A stretch of DNA of 24,874 nucleotides from a virus (taxonomy: Duplodnaviria; Caudoviricetes): IMG/VR virus record IMGVR_UViG_3300046328_000416, positions 1-24,874 of that record, one strand, 5' to 3'. The notes under the pieces were generated by a model. That model searched no databases and had not been told where the DNA came from. It saw only the letters and a program-made list of their open reading frames with translations. The position numbers and the translations under genes are program-made. The number at the start of each line of letters is the position of its first letter. Position 1 is the first letter of the stretch. This document shows, in pieces, positions 5,816-23,540 of this stretch.

Positions 5816-6601
5816 ATGGCAATCACAACGGTTGACGGATTCACCGGGGCTGCGCGTCAGTATCCAGCCTATGTCAAAACCGCCACGCGGACGGTTATCG
5901 CCGGAAACTGGTTCACGCTGTTTGATCTGGCAGGTCAGCCTGGTGCGGGTGTTTTGGCGGGAACATCGGTCGCGGCTGGTGTGGTCCCGGTCGCGGGTGG
6001 CGCTGGTTTCCCGAATATCGTCTCAATCGCGGATTCTGGATATCTTTCTGGGGTTCAATTCGGGTCAAGTGTGGCATGCAGGTTGTCCCTATTTGATCTT
6101 TTGTGGAAAGCCGGGGCCTATCCGTTCAATGCCGCACAAGCGCTGACGGGTCAGCCATCGTTTGCAGCGCGTGTTCCGGGGGCAAACTACGCCGTCACTT
6201 CCATCTGGATTGAGGCTGTGACTGCCTTTACGGGCATTCCAACCTTTACCATCACCTATACCAATCAGAGCGGGGTTGCGGGCCGCACGGCAACGATTGC
6301 CGCTGCGAGCGCCCTAACACTTGGTCGAATGCTGCAAATTCCGCTGCAATCTGGCGACACTGGTGTTCAGCTGATCACAAACGTGACTTGCACCGTCGCG
6401 ACAGTTGGAACCTTTAATGTCCTGGTGATGCGCGCGTTGTGGTCAGGTCGTGTTCGCGCCGCGAATGACGGCGGAAATGACAACATGGTGGCGACTGGAT
6501 TGCCGCCAATGTTCAGTACCACAGCCCTATATTTGGCCGTGGCGGCTGACGCGACATCGAGCGGTAACCCTGAGTTGAGGCTGACGGTCAGCGATGGCTA
6601 A
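5816..6601 (+). CDS. Hypothetical putative virion protein
   Basis: 261 aa, beta-strand-like composition, 1 nt after the previous stop and overlapping the next gene. Confidence 0.6.
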   Translation: MAITTVDGFTGAARQYPAYVKTATRTVIAGNWFTLFDLAGQPGAGVLAGTSVAAGVVPVAGGAGFPNIVSIADSGYLSGVQFGSSVACRLSLFDLLWKAGAYPFNAAQALTGQPSFAARVPGANYAVTSIWIEAVTAFTGIPTFTITYTNQSGVAGRTATIAAASALTLGRMLQIPLQSGDTGVQLITNVTCTVATVGTFNVLVMRALWSGRVRAANDGGNDNMVATGLPPMFSTTALYLAVAADATSSGNPELRLTVSDG

Positions 6602-16935: not shown

Positions 16936-16956
16936 TCAATATTCTTGGAGACTGAT

Positions 16957-19080
16957 ATGAGCGTTGCTGTAGACACCGCATTGCGCGATTTTGTCCGCTA
17001 CACAGGCGATGGCCTTCCAAACGCCCCGGTAGGGGCACCCTTGCCAATCGGTGATCCATCGTCTGGGGTGCACAATCCCAGCAAGGCAGAGTTGCGCAAT
17101 GCAATCGGCGGGGTTGCCGATCAGGCGGCGATGTCTGCGGCACAGGCAGCGGCCTACGGTGGGGTAGAGGTGGTCACATTTGCCCAGCTGGTGGCCCTGA
17201 CATCTGGGACGGTGTCGGTGGGCGACATCGTACGTGTCGCATCCATTGACGCAATTTATCAGCGTTTGGCTTCGGGCGGAAACTTAACGCATACTGCGTC
17301 AACACTTTCATGGACCGTATTCCCGACAGAGGACGGCCTTGATGTCCGCGCATTTGGGGCCGTTGGTGACGGTACGACAGATGACTCGCCATCTTTTCAG
17401 GCGGCGGTCAACGCGACACCGACCATCTTGGGGTCAGTGCATGGCGGCAATGCGAGTTTCCGCCTTGCTGCACCGATCACCATGTCGGGCAAGGTTGATC
17501 TGCGGATTTCCAATTGCAAAGTGCTTGGAAACGCCACGCGGTTTGCGGGCTATTTCAACGTATCAGGCAGTGACGGGGTTATATTCGACAACGTGACGTT
17601 CGATCACATGTTTGGCGTCGTGACCCAATTCTTGCCAGCGCATTATGCCTCTGGCAGTTTTAACGTTGGGGTCTACGGTACAACTTGCGGTGATGTGACG
17701 GTGATAAACAGTCGATTTGACAGGCTTTACACGCGGTCAATCAATCTGACGGGGGCTGGCAAACTGACCGTTCGCGGGTGTGCATTTACATCACCTGTGC
17801 AGAACCAGACCCAAATCTTGGATTATATTGCCATTTTGACATCGCGCGCACTGGAGGTGGTTGGCAACACGTTCCTAAGCGCGGCCACAACAAAGGATTT
17901 TGGCACGTGCGCGGTGGTCTATTCTGGCATCACCGAGGCAGTCTTGATCGCGGACAATGAAACAAATTGGTGCGGGCGCGACAACACCGGAACGCACCGC
18001 CTTGGTGTGTTCGATGGATATTTTGACGCCAAGAATGTGCGGATTTCGGGGAACCTATCGCGCAACTGTTTGGCGCAGTTCGTGCGCGCATCAGCAATTG
18101 AAAATCTGGAAATCATCGACAACATTGTTCACGTCGCGGCGGCGGCTGAAACTGGCTACAGCCTGATCAGCCTTGAGGGCGGCACGTTTACCGGAACCGG
18201 CGTTGCTATCCGAAACGCAAAAGTGAGCGGCAACATCATCAACGACCCTTCTTTGCGGTCTGCGGTCCATGTTCAGCTTGTCGCGTATGATTGGGGCGCG
18301 ACATCGAGAGATATCACCATCTCAAACAATACGTTTAGCGGGAGTGATGTCGCCATTCTGGTGGTTGGCCCGTACAACGGCATGAGGATTGAAAACAACG
18401 TGGCGCGCGGCGGGCCGGGACGGATCAACCTAAACAGTGAGAGCGGGGGCATTACACTGACGGCGGTGCAGGGGACGCAAATAAACGCACGAATGCGCGG
18501 GCTTCGGATTGCCGGAAACGACCTTGAATGCACGGGGACCGGGGCGGGGATTACTGTTTCAACCGACAAGACCCCGATCTTTACTGGCGCGATGATTGAC
18601 GGGGTTATCGAGGGAAACCGTGTTGTTAACCTTGCCGCAACTGGCGCGCAAGCCATTGTTGCAAACCCAAGAGGCACACCAAAGCTGGCAGAGATTTCCA
18701 TTCGCGGAAACTATACGCGCGGTTTTGACGTTGATATCTACCCCCGCGAATGCGCCACTGTCAGGGTTCTTAACAATGACGGGAACGGCATAACCGCACC
18801 ATATTCGTCGGATGCAACAAACGTTGTGGAACAGCGGCGTGGCAACAGCGGCAAGGCGGGCAGGCTCTTTGGAACAGCAACGCTTGTGGCTGGCGGGGCA
18901 GGGATCGGCAACACCGAAGTGCGCACCGATGATGCGGGTAAAATCATGATCACAAGAACCATTTCGGGCGGCACATTGGGCCACCTTGACGTGCATACAA
19001 TCGTGAACGCGACCAGCTTTCAGTTGCGTTCATCATCCGGCGCCGACACGTCGACGGTGTTTTGGGAGATCGTGCGATAA
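16957..19080 (+). CDS. Tailspike / receptor-binding protein with right-handed beta-helix (pectate-lyase-like, candidate depolymerase)
   Basis: RBS GGAG at 16947. DVRAFGAVGDGTTDDSPSFQAAVNA motif followed by many I-x-G/N-N beta-helix rungs. Confidence 0.85.
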   Translation: MSVAVDTALRDFVRYTGDGLPNAPVGAPLPIGDPSSGVHNPSKAELRNAIGGVADQAAMSAAQAAAYGGVEVVTFAQLVALTSGTVSVGDIVRVASIDAIYQRLASGGNLTHTASTLSWTVFPTEDGLDVRAFGAVGDGTTDDSPSFQAAVNATPTILGSVHGGNASFRLAAPITMSGKVDLRISNCKVLGNATRFAGYFNVSGSDGVIFDNVTFDHMFGVVTQFLPAHYASGSFNVGVYGTTCGDVTVINSRFDRLYTRSINLTGAGKLTVRGCAFTSPVQNQTQILDYIAILTSRALEVVGNTFLSAATTKDFGTCAVVYSGITEAVLIADNETNWCGRDNTGTHRLGVFDGYFDAKNVRISGNLSRNCLAQFVRASAIENLEIIDNIVHVAAAAETGYSLISLEGGTFTGTGVAIRNAKVSGNIINDPSLRSAVHVQLVAYDWGATSRDITISNNTFSGSDVAILVVGPYNGMRIENNVARGGPGRINLNSESGGITLTAVQGTQINARMRGLRIAGNDLECTGTGAGITVSTDKTPIFTGAMIDGVIEGNRVVNLAATGAQAIVANPRGTPKLAEISIRGNYTRGFDVDIYPRECATVRVLNNDGNGITAPYSSDATNVVEQRRGNSGKAGRLFGTATLVAGGAGIGNTEVRTDDAGKIMITRTISGGTLGHLDVHTIVNATSFQLRSSSGADTSTVFWEIVR

Positions 19081-19109
19081 ATGATGAATAGATTGGGGAT
19101 AATGTTGCC

Positions 19110-19499
19110 ATGAAAGACGCAGCTTTGCTGACCGCAAAAGACTGGTTAACCCTTGTTCTGTCTGGTCTTGGCATTTCATTCGCCCCGCACCTGTTTTTTG
19201 GCGGGGTCATTCTGGCCTTGGCCGGGGCATCGCTGGCCCGGTCATTTTCGCCAGAGCGTGATGAACGTGAATTGATCAGCGTCCTTTTGAGCGCGCTGAT
19301 CGTGGCGGTGATCAGCGCCGAGTTTGCCCAGATTTACATGCCCGCCTATCCACCCCAGCTGGTGATGTTCGTGGGCGGGTTTTGCAGTCGCTATGCGGTT
19401 GGCACAGCCCTGCGGGTGATGGGGCTGGTTGAAAAAAAGACAGAGCGAATTGTTGACGGCGCGATTGACAAGGTTTTGGGAAAGGATCCCGAAGAATGA
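19110..19499 (+). CDS. Putative holin
   Basis: 129 aa with several hydrophobic segments and a charged C-terminus. ATGA overlap with the endolysin gene. Confidence 0.7.
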   Translation: MKDAALLTAKDWLTLVLSGLGISFAPHLFFGGVILALAGASLARSFSPERDERELISVLLSALIVAVISAEFAQIYMPAYPPQLVMFVGGFCSRYAVGTALRVMGLVEKKTERIVDGAIDKVLGKDPEE

Positions 19500-20107
19500 A
19501 AACTGTCGCACAACTGACAGCGGAAATTCTGGCCCGTGAGGGTGGTTTTGTGAACGATCCAGATGATCCGGGCGGGGCCACAAACCACGGCGTCACCATC
19601 GGCACGATGCGCGCGCTTGGGGTGGATATCAACGGCGATGGCCGCATTGATGTGACCGATGTAAAAATCCTGCCTGTGGCGCGGGCGGCAGAAATCTACA
19701 TGCAGCACTATTTCTATAAACCTGGCATCGACAAGTTGCCGGTGCCGCTGCAAGGCGTGGTGTTCGATATGCACGTGAACGCCGGGGCCAATGCGATCAA
19801 GCTGTTACAGCGGTTCTTGATCGGGCTGGGGTTTCCGTGCGGGGTTGATGGCCAGATCGGGCGCCAAACCATCTATGCCGCCGAACTGGCCTACAAGGAG
19901 AAAGGCGCGGATATGGCTGATCTATATGCCATCGCGCGGCGCAACTATTACTATTCTTTGGCGGATTCGCGCCCCGCCAGCCGCAAATACGCGCGCCGCA
20001 AAGACGGTGGCAAGGGTGGTTGGATCATCCGGGCAGAGGATTTCATGCGGCCGGATTTGCGGCTGACCGATGCGCAACACCGGGCCCGCGTAGAAAATTG
20101 GCCGTGA
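19496..20107 (+). CDS. Endolysin, GH108 N-acetylmuramidase with peptidoglycan-binding domain
   Basis: Catalytic EGGFVNDPDDPGGATNHGVT, FDMHVNAG and VDGQIG motifs. Confidence 0.92.
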   Translation: MKTVAQLTAEILAREGGFVNDPDDPGGATNHGVTIGTMRALGVDINGDGRIDVTDVKILPVARAAEIYMQHYFYKPGIDKLPVPLQGVVFDMHVNAGANAIKLLQRFLIGLGFPCGVDGQIGRQTIYAAELAYKEKGADMADLYAIARRNYYYSLADSRPASRKYARRKDGGKGGWIIRAEDFMRPDLRLTDAQHRARVENWP

Positions 20108-20117
20108 GAGTGATGCA

Positions 20118-20438
20118 ATGATCTTGCTCTACCGCGCCCTTGCCATAGCGGCCTTTATCGGTGGGCTATGGCTGCACGGTTACACCAAGGGGGCCGCGTC
20201 TGTGCGCGCCGAATTGGCAGTGCAAACCGCACAGATGCAACAAGACATCATAGAGGCCAGCGCCCGTGCTGCGCGCGCCGGGGCTGCGCTGCAAGCCATG
20301 CGCGCGGCCAATGCCACAGCCCTAGAGGATTTCGAAAATGCGGCAATCAATGACAGCAATGCTGGCAATCGCCGGGTTGACCCTGACAGCTTGCGGCGAC
20401 TTCAAGCCCTTTTCGCGGGTAACCGTGCCGCCCCTTGA
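20118..20438 (+). CDS. Inner-membrane spanin, Rz-like
   Basis: Single N-terminal TM segment followed by an Ala-rich coiled coil. Follows the endolysin gene. Confidence 0.75.
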   Translation: MILLYRALAIAAFIGGLWLHGYTKGAASVRAELAVQTAQMQQDIIEASARAARAGAALQAMRAANATALEDFENAAINDSNAGNRRVDPDSLRRLQALFAGNRAAP

Positions 20439-20595
20439 TAGCGCCATCACAGCGCCATGTTTGGCCCCAGAGGCGGCGCTAGGGTCTGGTGACTGGTTGG
20501 TGGTGGCTGGCACCCTCGGCACGGCGCTGATTGAATGCGAGGCCAGCCGCGCGGCTGCGGTGGGGGCGTATCAGGGTGTGGCGGATGCGCTCTGA
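20338..20595 (+). CDS. Outer-membrane spanin lipoprotein, Rz1-like
   Basis: Signal peptide with lipobox LTAC (Cys19). Overlaps the i-spanin 3' end in another frame. Contains PPL...APC and a second Cys. Confidence 0.8.
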   Translation: MRQSMTAMLAIAGLTLTACGDFKPFSRVTVPPLDSAITAPCLAPEAALGSGDWLVVAGTLGTALIECEASRAAAVGAYQGVADAL

Positions 20596-21262
20596 CGAAG
20601 TGCAGCGCCAGGGCGTTTTGTTCGATGCGGAAAAGCGGGTTCTTGTCCACGGTGACAAAGAGTGCCGATTGAAGCGTGGACCATTACGGCTTTGCGTCTA
20701 TCTGATGCAAACACCTGGTGTCATAAGAACAAGAGAGCAAATTCTTGACGTGATGCACGGCGAAGGGTTCGATATTTTCGACAGAACTGTTGATAGTTAT
20801 GTTAAACGCGCACGTATGCAGATCATACCTGCCTTCGGATTTGACCCAATCAAGACGGACTATCGCGTTGGATATTATTGGGATGCTGGGGGCTCACAAG
20901 TAGCGGTGACATCCCGACCAGATACAGAGGTTTGGTGTGATCACGAACTGCGTTTGGTGATGCGGGGTTCGAAGCAATGCCGCCTTACGGCAAGGGAATT
21001 TGATATATGTGCTATCTTGTCAGCCCGACCGGGTGTGGTGAAATCGCGCGCCTTCTTCATTAACGAGTTCTATCGTGGGTGGAATCCGGCAAAAGACACT
21101 GTAATTGACAGTTTCGTCCAGCGGACACGAAGGAAGATGGAACGCGATCTTGGTGTTGACCCAATTAAGACCAGCTATGGTTTTGGCTATTATTGGGAAA
21201 ATCTGGCGACAGGTGTGCCCGCGTCATCTGCGCAGCGCGCCGGAAATGCCAGATATTACTAG
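20585..21262 (+). CDS. Receiver-less transcription factor with two tandem OmpR/PhoB-type winged-helix DNA-binding domains
   Basis: Domain 1: PGVIRTREQILDVMHG...DRTVDSYVKRAR...IKTDYRVGYYW. Domain 2: LTAREFDICAILSARPGVVKSR...VIDSFVQRTRRKM...IKTSYGFGYYW. The ATG at 20585 is preferred over 20531. Confidence 0.88.
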   Translation: MRSDEVQRQGVLFDAEKRVLVHGDKECRLKRGPLRLCVYLMQTPGVIRTREQILDVMHGEGFDIFDRTVDSYVKRARMQIIPAFGFDPIKTDYRVGYYWDAGGSQVAVTSRPDTEVWCDHELRLVMRGSKQCRLTAREFDICAILSARPGVVKSRAFFINEFYRGWNPAKDTVIDSFVQRTRRKMERDLGVDPIKTSYGFGYYWENLATGVPASSAQRAGNARYY

Positions 21263-21299
21263 TCCACAACCCGCGCGGATTCGGTTTACAGTCGCCACG

Positions 21300-21312
21300 T
21301 AACCCATTGATT
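21300..21312 (-). promoter_or_regulatory. IHF-consensus site in the left attP arm
   Basis: Reverse complement AATCAATGGGTTA matches WATCAANNNNTTR. Confidence 0.65.
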
Positions 21313-21373
21313 CCAAACACCACCAAATGAGGCTAGTTTACACATATTTGCCAATGATTTCAGCGCAAAGGTT

Positions 21374-21422
21374 CTGATTTGTAATCAGGGGGTCTCGGGT
21401 TCAAATCCTGATGGGGGCACCA
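21374..21422 (+). other. attP: attP core: 3' half of a tRNA-Thr(TGT) gene
   Basis: CTGA-TTTGTAA-TCAG anticodon arm, T arm TCGGG-TTCAAAT-CCTGA, acceptor strand TGGGGGC-A-CCA. No D arm or 5' acceptor strand upstream. Lies 60 bp from the integrase stop. Confidence 0.9.
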
Positions 21423-21426
21423 TTTA

Positions 21427-21439
21427 AATCAATGGCTTA
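21427..21439 (+). promoter_or_regulatory. IHF-consensus site in the right attP arm
   Basis: AATCAATGGCTTA matches WATCAANNNNTTR. Confidence 0.65.
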
Positions 21440-21454
21440 GCAGGTTGGCGGTTT

Positions 21455-21489
21455 AACCGTTTACAGGCTTTCGGTAAACCGTTTACAGG
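21455..21489 (+). repeat. 13-bp direct repeat, probable integrase arm-type sites
   Basis: AACCGTTTACAGG at 21455-21467 and 21477-21489. The GTTTACA core also occurs at 21284-21290 and 21336-21342. Confidence 0.7.
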
Positions 21490-22529
21490 TCCGTTGCCAT
21501 TCTGTGCTTTTCCAGCTTTGCAATGGCCGATTCCCCGAGCGCCAAATCGCGGCTGAAATAGTGCTTGTCGAGGATGCTTTCCACGTCTTTCAGATTATGG
21601 CCGGTGATGGTCGCAATCTCAGGAACTGAGCAACCGGCTGCGGCAAGGCGCGAAACTGCTGTGCCGCGAAAGTCGTGAAACGTCAGGCCCGTAACCCCGG
21701 CTGCGGCGCATGTCTTGCCAAAGCTGGTTTTAAAACCGTCGCTGGTCCACGGTGTTGCGCGCTGTGTTGCGCAAATCGTGACCGTCTTGCGCGTTAGCTT
21801 GGCCGCGTCCAATACCCCCCGCAATTCGGCTGCAATCTTGATGGTCAGGTGACGCCCTGTTTTCGATTGCCGCAAGCGGATGAACTCCCCATCGTATGCC
21901 GCCCATGTCAGGCGCAAGATATCGCCCTGTCGTTGCCCGGTCCATAATGCGATCTGACACGGCAACGCGACGGCTGTGGACGCCTTGGCGAATAGCGCGC
22001 CCAACGTGTCGTCACGCCAGACATTCGCGGCCCTGCCTGCGCTGTGCAGCCTGCCGGGTCGTTCGCACGGGTTGGCCACGATCTTGCGGCGGTCATAGGC
22101 CCATGCCATGACCTTCGACAGGACCGAAAACGCGTAATCAGCGGCCCGCGTCCCTGTGACGGCCAGCCCGTCCCGCCATTCCAGAAAATCGCCACGAATA
22201 AGCGGGTCGTTGATTGCGGCAATTGGCAAGTCGCCAAACTCGGCCTCAATCTTGCGAATGTATCGGGCGTATTCCTTGCGTGTGGTTTCGGCCAGTGCGG
22301 TGAAATCCGTTGTCGATCGGTAACTGTCAATCAGCCCTTGCAGCGTGGCCTTGCCCTTGATCGGCTTATCGCGGGTGGCTGTGAGCGCGTGAAACTCTGC
22401 GATGAATTGCGGGGTTCCGGGTTCAGCTTCAATCTTTGGCCCGCCCCGCCATGCGTAGAAGTGCAGGGAGTGACCGCCCCCGGAGAGGCGGCGTTTAACC
22501 TTGTGGATTCCCTTGAGATCGACTTGCAC
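21483..22529 (-). CDS. int: Tyrosine integrase
   Basis: Catalytic set R (TGQRQGD), K (QSKTG), HxxR (FHDFR), H (TGH), Y (KHY). Probable GTG start at 22529 with GGAAGG upstream; the track ORF extends to 22652. Confidence 0.95.
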   Translation of the reverse strand: MQVDLKGIHKVKRRLSGGGHSLHFYAWRGGPKIEAEPGTPQFIAEFHALTATRDKPIKGKATLQGLIDSYRSTTDFTALAETTRKEYARYIRKIEAEFGDLPIAAINDPLIRGDFLEWRDGLAVTGTRAADYAFSVLSKVMAWAYDRRKIVANPCERPGRLHSAGRAANVWRDDTLGALFAKASTAVALPCQIALWTGQRQGDILRLTWAAYDGEFIRLRQSKTGRHLTIKIAAELRGVLDAAKLTRKTVTICATQRATPWTSDGFKTSFGKTCAAAGVTGLTFHDFRGTAVSRLAAAGCSVPEIATITGHNLKDVESILDKHYFSRDLALGESAIAKLEKHRMATDL

Positions 22530-22701
22530 GGCTGGCCTTCCACGCCTCACGGGCGTTTGCGGGTTCGGATTCTTGGACTGTATGCCATAGCCTGATGCTC
22601 CCGTCGCTGGTGATTTCTGATCTGACAACGGGAAGCCCCCCGGCGATTGCACCTTTGACGGCGCGGGTTAGGTCGGATTGGCGGAATGCAGCGCGGGTCA
22701 T
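22495..22701 (-). CDS. Putative excisionase / recombination directionality factor (68 aa)
   Basis: MTRAAFRQSDLTRAVKGAIAGGLPVVRSEITSDGSIRL; small and basic, overlaps the int start, RBS GAAAGG. Function inferred from position. Confidence 0.6.
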   Translation of the reverse strand: MTRAAFRQSDLTRAVKGAIAGGLPVVRSEITSDGSIRLWHTVQESEPANAREAWKASRASRSQGNPQG

Positions 22702-23026: not shown

Positions 23027-23229
23027 AGCGTCGTCTTCCCGTGCTTCGATGTGCAGTAACCGCAAAGCCAGTCATGATGCTCTTCATCGCGGATTTTGGT
23101 CCAACCGTTCTTTTTTGCGTAAGTCGCCATTTCTGATCTTGGAACTCGGTCGGAAAGAAGGAAGCGCCCTGCAATCGTGCTAGAGCAAGAACGGCAAACC
23201 AACTCGGTCCAAACAAAAGACCCCATCAT
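23023..23229 (-). CDS. Small Zn-finger-like protein
   Basis: CRSC...GW...CGYC. Coupled to both neighbours. Confidence 0.7.
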   Translation of the reverse strand: MMGSFVWTELVCRSCSSTIAGRFLLSDRVPRSEMATYAKKNGWTKIRDEEHHDWLCGYCTSKHGKTTL

Positions 23230-23540
23230 TCACCGCCTTTCGTGAACATGGCTAGGGCGGCGCGCAGGGTTATGATATCGGTGCGACCGATTGCCCCCGC
23301 GACAGGAACGCCGTTTCTGATTGTTGCGTGTGCAAACGGGCGACACGCCTCCAACAGCGCCAACACCTCTGGAGAGTTGGGGCGGGTGTTCCATACGGCT
23401 ACGGCCATCTCTTTAGTTGCGTCATCACCCTGCGCACGGCAATCCGTACAAACAACATAGGAACATCCCACCATTTCGACATTTGCGAGATATGGTTTGC
23501 CCCCACAAAACGGGCATGGCTTGAGTTCAGGCGCGGTCAT
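23226..23540 (-). CDS. Lar-family restriction-alleviation-like Zn-ribbon protein with C-terminal extension
   Basis: ELKPCPFCGG...VVCTDCRAQG...AVAVWNTR signature. Confidence 0.82.
   Translation of the reverse strand: MTAPELKPCPFCGGKPYLANVEMVGCSYVVCTDCRAQGDDATKEMAVAVWNTRPNSPEVLALLEACRPFAHATIRNGVPVAGAIGRTDIITLRAALAMFTKGGE

Follow-up and report, generated by a model that had tools for sequence, protein, structure and literature searches.

Among bacterial response regulators the OmpR/PhoB type forms the largest class, and binding of its members to DNA normally needs a dimerisation that is driven by phosphorylation. Here we describe a gene of a temperate, HK97-like phage whose product, P0001, carries two OmpR/PhoB-type DNA-binding domains (Pfam family Trans_reg_C) in a single chain and has no receiver domain. 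The gene lies in a linear IMG/VR virus record (IMGVR_UViG_3300046328_000416) that is estimated to be 36% complete. The stretch analysed, called the window below, is positions 1 to 24,874 of that record at its full length of 24,874 nucleotides.

The nearest described system is PhoB of E. coli, whose effector domain (1gxp, 1gxq, 1qqi) has a fold in common with the domains of P0001. Two PhoB effector domains sit head-to-tail on the direct repeats of the pho box, and it is this arrangement that the short covalent linker of P0001 would fix. PhoB, however, needs a phosphorylated receiver in order to dimerise, and P0001 has no receiver. P0001 also differs from PhoB in having two DNA-reading units in one chain, and the sequence identity is only ~24%. 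Since the two units of P0001 are themselves only 36% identical (65.9 bits), its half-sites need not be alike.

Receiver-less activators are known within the OmpR family. ToxR, TcpP, CadC and the SARPs use the winged helix without phosphorylation; they have a single winged helix joined to a membrane/periplasmic sensor or to a BTAD/NTPase module and act as oligomers. P0001, unlike these, consists of two winged helices and nothing else. A single chain with two DNA-reading units is also found in MarA, SoxS and Rob, which are monomers with two helix-turn-helix units that bind an asymmetric bipartite site and are controlled by their amount, not by a ligand. Their fold (AraC family) is unrelated to that of P0001 however, and they are not known to be phage-borne.

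The closest relatives of both P0001 domains are stand-alone, single-domain Trans_reg_C proteins of 93-127 residues (P0011-P0017; 41-45% identity), which fall in the same clade and have the same C-terminal hairpin signature ending in Gly-Tyr-x-Trp. With one domain they would need to dimerise or bind singly, whereas P0001 has two. No study on the function of these singles was found in the literature. Proteins with repeated OmpR-type winged helices in one chain, like P0001, are already in the databases, unstudied, which limits the surprise, and the parts are known. Two Trans_reg_C domains without a receiver are found in P0041, P0065 and P0074, and a receiver with two such domains in P0019 and P0073. 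P0049 has three domains fused to a STAND-type NTPase and TPR repeats, P0095 has four and P0081 eight. These proteins are distant from P0001 (25-34% identity; 14 to 50 bits on the family hidden Markov model, HMM), and we know of none from a phage. A literature search of titles and abstracts found nothing on tandem OmpR-type single-chain proteins or on phage-borne receiver-less OmpR-type proteins. What is new here is a phage-borne Trans_reg_C tandem with a linker of fixed length.

Architecture and proposed mode of binding

The double winged-helix gene has an intact frame of 225 residues (Table 1). A Pfam scan of P0001 at E <= 1 gave Trans_reg_C (PF00486) alone, in two stretches (E 1.3e-25, 89.7 bits), with no match to Response_reg (PF00072). 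When the two halves were scanned separately, residues 1-105 scored 45.9 bits (E 6.1e-12) and residues 106-225 scored 47.5 bits (E 1.9e-12). The gathering cut-off of the family is 26.2 bits, so each half is by itself a member of the OmpR/PhoB effector-domain family. Only 8 residues precede domain 1. The profile scan thus bears out what the initial annotation had read from the sequence, two domains of this type and no receiver. The linker that it quoted is present at residues 100-112, and its quoted motifs are present too.

The same annotation had seen no kinase gene in the window, and none was found. HisKA, HATPase_c and Response_reg had no match in the 32 open reading frames (ORFs) of the window scanned with Pfam. 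A second record, G001, is 37.7 kb long, encodes an identical protein in the same place and adds 16.5 kb; it is apparently the same phage in a longer record. The 33 ORFs scanned in this extra part hold neither a kinase nor a receiver, which brings the scan to 65 ORFs in a phage record that is 54% complete by CheckV.

The AlphaFold2 model of P0001, built on a 34-row alignment, has a mean predicted local distance difference test score (pLDDT) of 86.5 and a predicted template modelling score (pTM) of 0.66. A beta-sheet, three helices and a C-terminal hairpin follow one another twice in the model, which is the pattern of the winged helix. The model is least certain over its first seven residues (1-7), the linker block (residues 101-110, mean pLDDT 66) and the last ~10 residues, where confidence is low. 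A Foldseek search of the PDB placed the PhoB effector-domain chains of 1gxp at the top, with an E-value of 7.7e-7 and a template modelling (TM) score by target of 0.82-0.84; ToxR (8b4d) is at rank 48. The TM score by query never exceeded 0.40 among the matches listed (about the top 50 ranks, in which some entries are represented by part of their chains), so that, judged on the model, no solved chain among them fits both domains well. Domain 1 aligns with the PhoB effector domain (1gxp/1qqi) over 94 residues without a gap, and the nearest solved relative of domain 2 by sequence is BaeR (4b09, 38.9 bits). In both domains the recognition helix retains its conserved Arg residues: R75, R77, R180 and R182 do not vary in a six-sequence alignment (A1), and R77 and R182 are still invariant in an alignment of nine sequences (A2).

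The linker is 17 residues long in eight of the nine relatives and 16 in the other, and only 2 to 10 of its 16-17 residues are identical to those of P0001. It is constant in length and variable in sequence, and therefore fits a fixed spacing of half-sites. The two recognition helices are unevenly conserved across the relatives: 9-15 of 15 residues are kept in domain 1 and 5-13 of 15 in domain 2. The nine-sequence alignment has 39 invariant columns, among them residues of the recognition helices and hairpins, and the reading frame is unbroken in every relative (9/9).

On balance we favour the reading that P0001 binds two adjacent half-sites as a single chain, with neither phosphorylation nor dimerisation, and is likely a constitutive regulator of transcription. 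The linker would hold the two domains head-to-tail, as two PhoB effector domains are held on the pho box, and a bipartite site of about 20-22 bp is therefore predicted. Domain 1, with its more conserved recognition helix, would read an anchor half-site. Domain 2, with the more variable helix, would read a half-site that differs between phages. The covalent link would take the place of phosphorylation-driven dimerisation, so that P0001 would be active whenever it is made. A single-chain binder of this kind, independent of phosphorylation, had been put forward in the initial annotation; it is a reasonable proposal and fits the linker of 17 residues in eight of nine relatives. A point against the favoured reading is that its head-to-tail geometry is assumed from PhoB-DNA structures (the 1gxp work).

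A natural covalent tandem of effector domains in a temperate phage would show how control by dimerisation can be bypassed. P0001 would also give a compact two-module scaffold for asymmetric sites of ~20 bp, and the fixed linker length together with the uneven conservation of the recognition helices lets the mechanism be tested directly. Should P0001 act on host promoters, phages would have a new route to the control of host transcription; should it act on phage sites, late or att-site control in temperate phages would gain a class of regulator.

The extreme C-terminus (residues 208-225; 21205-21262) is modelled with low confidence and ends in a short motif rich in Arg/Gly/Asn/Arg/Tyr. The motif is common to P0001, P0002 and the 55%-identical P0009 and is missing in P0003-P0006. 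A short tag for interaction or degradation is one possible role.

Genomic place and possible targets

The gene order is holin - endolysin - Rz - Rz1 - double winged-helix gene - attP - integrase. The slot between the lysis genes and attP, in which the gene had been placed from the start, is therefore correct: the holin, endolysin, Rz and Rz1 genes lie upstream, and a tRNA-like attP core and the integrase gene downstream. We lean slightly towards host promoters as targets and towards an accessory function, because of the low GC content, the slot adjoining attP and a divergence that is faster than that of the flanks. The GC fraction is 0.49-0.52 across the gene vs 0.57-0.65 in the flanks, a difference in composition of the kind that a moron (lysogenic-conversion gene) shows.

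The divergence can be followed in metagenomes. The window stretch was found in contigs of freshwater metagenome runs from 17 studies, two of the runs being its possible source, and eight runs were compared at the slot between Rz1 and attP. A 7,430-base contig of run X12 covers 20166-22689 with 212 differences in 2,524 bases (~92% identity) and has the gene in place; a contig of run X9 covers 20870-21425 at ~92% identity. A 5,162-base contig of run X4 matches the window at 19100-20598 and 21278-21423 with 88-95% identity, and has 612 other letters where the window has 679 (20599-21277). The difference of 67 bases fits the 22-residue gap between P0001 and the 203-residue proteins P0004/P0005 (62-65% identity). 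In run X3, two loose ends translate, by eye, to the C-terminus of P0005. Judged from these contigs, the gene keeps its place in related phages and diverges much faster than its flanks.

Several observations weigh against host targets and expression in the lysogen. First, the start of the gene overlaps the Rz1 stop by 11 bases. Second, consensus scans found no sigma-70-type promoter upstream of the gene (the one promoter type that the scan covered, which may not be that of the host) and no intrinsic terminator downstream. The overlap and the lack of these signals speak against the classic layout of a moron, and co-expression with the late lysis genes is predicted from the overlap unless a promoter lies inside Rz/Rz1. 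Third, among the contigs that bridge the slot, X12 record 14 carries the gene and X4 record 9 has in its place a sequence whose length would suit a diverged allele. An empty slot, with Rz1 running straight into attP, was seen in none of the contigs of the eight runs, which is no proof of absence. The presence in some phages and absence from others that marks a moron was thus not seen across these contigs, and presence in every slot-bridging contig looks more like a core gene than optional cargo.

Fourth, one of the singles is encoded in a late operon. P0014 (103 residues), the sister of domain 2 in the domain tree (support 87), comes from a Mu-like phage, with its gene in three IMG/VR contigs (L012 5986-6312; L011, L013). 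Its gene comes after those for a lysozyme and a holin of the gene transfer agent (GTA) type and overlaps the start of a 551-residue ORF that precedes Mu-type portal and MuF genes. At least part of the clade is therefore phage-borne, in late operons. The position of the P0014 gene is one in which a gene for packaging or late control would be expected. Taken together, the Rz1 overlap, the missing promoter, the gene's constant presence and the single in a late operon point to a role that is late or directed at the phage.

These observations are the basis of a possible, though not a probable, alternative in which P0001 acts on phage DNA and not on the host, either as a late-expressed regulator that shuts off early or integrase genes or tunes late ones, or as an architectural or directionality factor at attP. 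The overlap with Rz1 without promoter or terminator, the constant place in related phages and the late-operon setting of the nearest single of known context all agree with it. In addition the gene is 1-110 bases from the P arm of attP and convergent with int, and no excisionase family was found among the int-adjacent ORFs scanned. However, the low GC content and faster divergence fit an accessory gene better. The phage also already has ordinary switch regulators, namely two HTH_3 repressor-like genes elsewhere in its genome, and by gene content the double winged-helix protein is not its main switch. Nor does P0001 look like an excisionase, since Pfam gives it Trans_reg_C only, with no excisionase-like family. 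The remaining evidence on this alternative comes from attP itself.

The attP region holds the 3' part of a tRNA-Thr(UGU)-like sequence at ~21372-22 (Rfam tRNA, 22 bits, E 0.025). The piece matches well from the anticodon arm to the 3' end, its 5' part is unpaired, and the anticodon is read as UGU, for Thr. Lying between the double winged-helix gene and the integrase gene, it looks by sequence like a typical attP core. Early genes continue beyond the integrase, so the arrangement of the record is that of the phage (attP) and not that of a prophage. The 7-mer GTTTACA is present on the same strand (+) at 21284, 21336, 21459 and 21481, with two copies on each side of the tRNA piece. Two of these four copies lie inside a 13-base repeat found twice, at 21455 and 21477, with a spacing of 22 bp. 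The window has 5 copies of the 7-mer vs 1.3 expected, a count that none of 100 shuffles reached, and the other 16.5 kb of the phage has zero copies. An inverted pair at 21300-12 / 21427-39 fits what we take to be the consensus of integration host factor (IHF). These repeats are probably arm-type sites of the integrase together with sites for a bending protein.

The 13-mer and 7-mer repeats were considered as sites of P0001 and rejected, as the same 7-mer is on both arms, the usual pattern of integrase arms. They also have no second half-site, because only ~13 bases of each 22-bp unit are conserved. The presence of the repeats on both arms likewise differs from what an excisionase would give, and the alternative of action at attP loses ground accordingly.

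A second 7-mer, TCTGTCA, has 6 copies in the 16.5-kb early region vs 1.17 expected, and 0/200 shuffles reached 6. One copy is in a 14-base palindrome adjoining an HTH_3 gene, and for this reason the 7-mer was dropped as a target of P0001; the phage repressor more likely uses it as an operator. In the divergent intergenic region next to an HTH_3 gene there is also a 24-base unit repeated 25 bp apart, and these sites (L005, in the longer record, 6290-6346, 1876-1916) are probably operators of the repressor.

A difference at the end of the gene was seen beside attP. The C-terminal 12 residues of P0003 are the other-frame translation of the window DNA after the P0001 stop at 11 of 12 positions (21263-21302), and the gene end differs by frame between P0001 and P0003. 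The DNA that holds the first arm-site copy has thus hardly changed between phages that share only 66% identity in their winged-helix proteins.

To return to the favoured reading, of a single chain on two half-sites, its boldest form would make P0001 a natural single-chain "dimer" with a conserved anchor domain, a fast-changing second domain and a fixed linker, a modular and constitutive reader of bipartite sites that is re-aimed in each phage variant at different host promoters and bypasses two-component signalling to reprogramme the lysogen or infected cell. We consider that form unlikely.

Origin of the two domains

The close family of P0001 is very small. A word-indexed search of 5.8 billion clusters gave seven matches among 200 candidates, of which five are family members (169-225 residues, 54-92% identity). 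HMMER against 1.84 billion representatives gave 897 matches at E <= 0.001, 14 at <= 1e-10 and only 2 at <= 1e-30, P0009 (55% identity) and P0010 (48%). The next-best matches are proteins of 93-113 residues with one winged helix and nothing else (41-45% identity), and response regulators come later. The nearest ESM Atlas clusters are likewise Trans_reg_C-only proteins of 121-127 residues, with 615, 50 and 53 members.

Searches of genomes added no further kin. The cultured-phage collection gave weak single-domain matches only, in 4 of 50,697 records, and a viral contig search found the same phage only. Two scans of genome contigs found no relatives among 50 and 81 candidate stretches, and a contig search with the single-domain P0011 alone found nothing. 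A metagenome contig scan gave four loci, none of them family kin. In three of these the match is the C-terminal end of a 215-245-residue ORF followed by a 440-531-residue ORF, which by ORF sizes is the layout of ordinary two-component pairs.

Relations among the domains were examined in a tree of 175 rows from 160 proteins (quick IQ-TREE, 95 columns). The rows were the family, with P0006 left out as its domain 1 is truncated, and the top-150 matches with their extra domains, each of at least 75 residues. The first domains of the family group in one clade (8 rows, support 98), and the second domains in another (8 rows, support 96). All 16 family domains fall inside a clade of 56 rows (Shimodaira-Hasegawa-like approximate likelihood ratio test, SH-aLRT, 92) together with 35 stand-alone singles and 5 short others. 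This clade has no receiver-bearing row and no other tandem row; none of the 18 domain rows of the other multi-domain proteins is in it.

A subset of 43 rows was chosen by hand, with 5+5 family domains, 12 singles and 21 response-regulator rows (PhoB-passing, CtrA-like and ChvI-like). The PhoB rows pass the NCBIfam cut-off and the CtrA-like rows score 172 to 339 bits against a cut-off of 350; P0007, P0027 and P0073 are rows that we take to be ChvI-like, as NCBIfam offered no ChvI model. A branch of support 96 has the 10 family domains and 12 singles on one side and all 21 response-regulator rows on the other. The CtrA-like clade (support 99) lies far from the family; of the response-regulator groups, the ChvI-like one (support 98) comes nearest, with a joint node of 83. 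Constraining domains 1 and 2 to a single clade gave a tree 4.6 log-likelihood units above that of the free search. The two domains are thus sisters in the best tree, and this points to an internal duplication.

The pairwise scores agree with the tree. In BLAST, domain 1 scored 83.6 bits with its best single, 73.6 with the other family domain and 64.3 with the best response regulator (PhoB 58.9, ChvI-like 52.8, CtrA-like 23.9). Domain 2 scored 77.0, 75.9 and 65.1 bits in the same order (PhoB 46.6, ChvI-like 57.8, CtrA-like 65.1), its best response regulator being a CtrA-like paralogue. On NCBIfam models, domain 1 is best on PhoB (45.1 bits) and domain 2 on BaeR (46.1 bits). From these results we infer that a small stand-alone winged-helix gene, like those on phage and metagenome contigs, was duplicated and fused to give P0001, and that P0001 was not captured from a host response regulator.

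The initial annotation had noted motifs close to ChvI and, in the second domain, motifs reminiscent of CtrA. An origin from these two found no support: the phylogeny of each domain puts both in a receiver-less clade, and singles outscore response regulators. The likeness of domain 2 to CtrA stands in part, in that CtrA-like paralogues are its best receiver-bearing matches (65.1 and 64.7 bits), and fails in part, in that singles score higher. These two paralogues reach only 172 and 185 bits on the NCBIfam CtrA model (NF045991, an equivalog with a cut-off of 350 bits); domain 2 itself scores 35 bits on it and domain 1 has no listed match. Descent of the domains from ChvI and CtrA is thus not supported by the sequence comparisons.

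The separation from these two groups is not absolute. In approximately unbiased (AU) tests on the 43-row subset, placing domain 2 with the CtrA-like rows lowered the log-likelihood by 12.7 (p 0.207) and placing domain 1 with the ChvI-like rows lowered it by 2.1 (p 0.476); neither was rejected. The tree moreover rests on ~95 columns and on rows taken from the best 150 matches and the family. Both points tell against the duplication of a single as the origin.

They also bear on a mimic of ChvI and CtrA, with one domain captured from each regulator, that would be a constitutive activator or competitor at their boxes and rewire the envelope or cell-cycle regulons of an alphaproteobacterial host. 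We consider this mimic very unlikely, and hijack of the two regulons is not supported. The AU tests allow it, the paralogue matches of domain 2 and the nearness of the ChvI-like rows (as labelled here) in the subset tree are in its favour, and a weak hint of an alphaproteobacterial host comes from the portal, for which the plasmid collection gave Azospirillum replicons (37% identity) as top matches. However, both domains sit in a clade of no receiver-bearing rows, the ChvI-like and CtrA-like scores of domain 1 are far below that of its best single, NCBIfam prefers PhoB and BaeR, and the two domains are more alike than either is to any response regulator. In addition the DNA is from freshwater metagenomes, and searches with the capsid and the portal yielded nothing above 41% identity, the matches being spread over many phyla.

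A decaying or neutral passenger, that is, a duplicated DNA-binding domain without present function, is barely plausible, for although the gene diverges faster than its flanks and its C-terminal tail varies between relatives (in one of them the gene reads on into the attP arm in another frame), none of the nine has a broken frame, the 39 invariant columns include recognition-helix and hairpin residues, the linker length is conserved and both domains score alike on Pfam.

One plasmid match was seen outside the family. In Streptomyces plasmid NZ_CP137525.1 (L020 4001-4612), tblastn matches 92% of P0001 at 29% identity, and the listed coding sequence (116 residues) covers only the second half. It may be an unannotated or broken tandem.

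Neighbouring genes and minor observations

Table 1. Coordinates of the double winged-helix gene, its parts and its neighbours in the window
Feature	Position	Strand	Basis or remarks
Holin-like ORF	19110-19499	+	Position and hydrophobic segments (inferred)
Endolysin, GH108 + PG_binding_3	19496..20107	+	Pfam E 2.8e-25 and 7.1e-15
Rz-like ORF	20118-20438	+	Weak PHROG spanin matches, E 0.003 to 0.008
Rz1-like outer-membrane spanin lipoprotein ORF	20338..20595	+	Embedded in/overlapping Rz-like ORF
Double winged-helix gene (P0001)	20585..21262	+	ORF; Pfam PF00486 twice; AlphaFold2 model
Domain 1, residues 9-102 (Pfam core 25-98)	20609..20890	+	Family-HMM envelope
Linker, residues 100-116	20882..20932	+	Between last Trp of domain 1 and invariant Trp-Cys-Asp opening domain 2
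Domain 2, residues 114-207 (Pfam core 131-203)	20924..21205	+	Family-HMM envelope
attP region	21263..21482	+	tRNA-like 3' part, 7-mer copies, inverted pair
Tyrosine integrase	21483..22652	-	Pfam Phage_integrase E 1e-12; convergent with double winged-helix gene

Pfam on the 32 ORFs of the window identified a large terminase, a portal, an S78 protease, an HK97-type capsid protein, and head-tail and tail genes. The Rz1-like ORF has an N-terminal signal that ends in Cys, which we take to fit the lipobox consensus. The extra 16.5 kb of G001 has, beside the two HTH_3 repressor-like genes, an HD-domain gene, a DUF2303 gene and an HNH endonuclease gene. PADLOC gave no match for P0001 or the six neighbouring ORFs.

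Upstream of the lysis genes, at 16945-19080, is a tail protein of 711 residues with a right-handed beta-helix and a C-terminal domain like that of K1 capsule lyase. It is likely a polysaccharide depolymerase tailspike, and such a tailspike suggests a host that is capsulated or coated with exopolysaccharide. Among the early genes adjoining the integrase there is a Lar-like restriction-alleviation gene (23226-23540, - strand).

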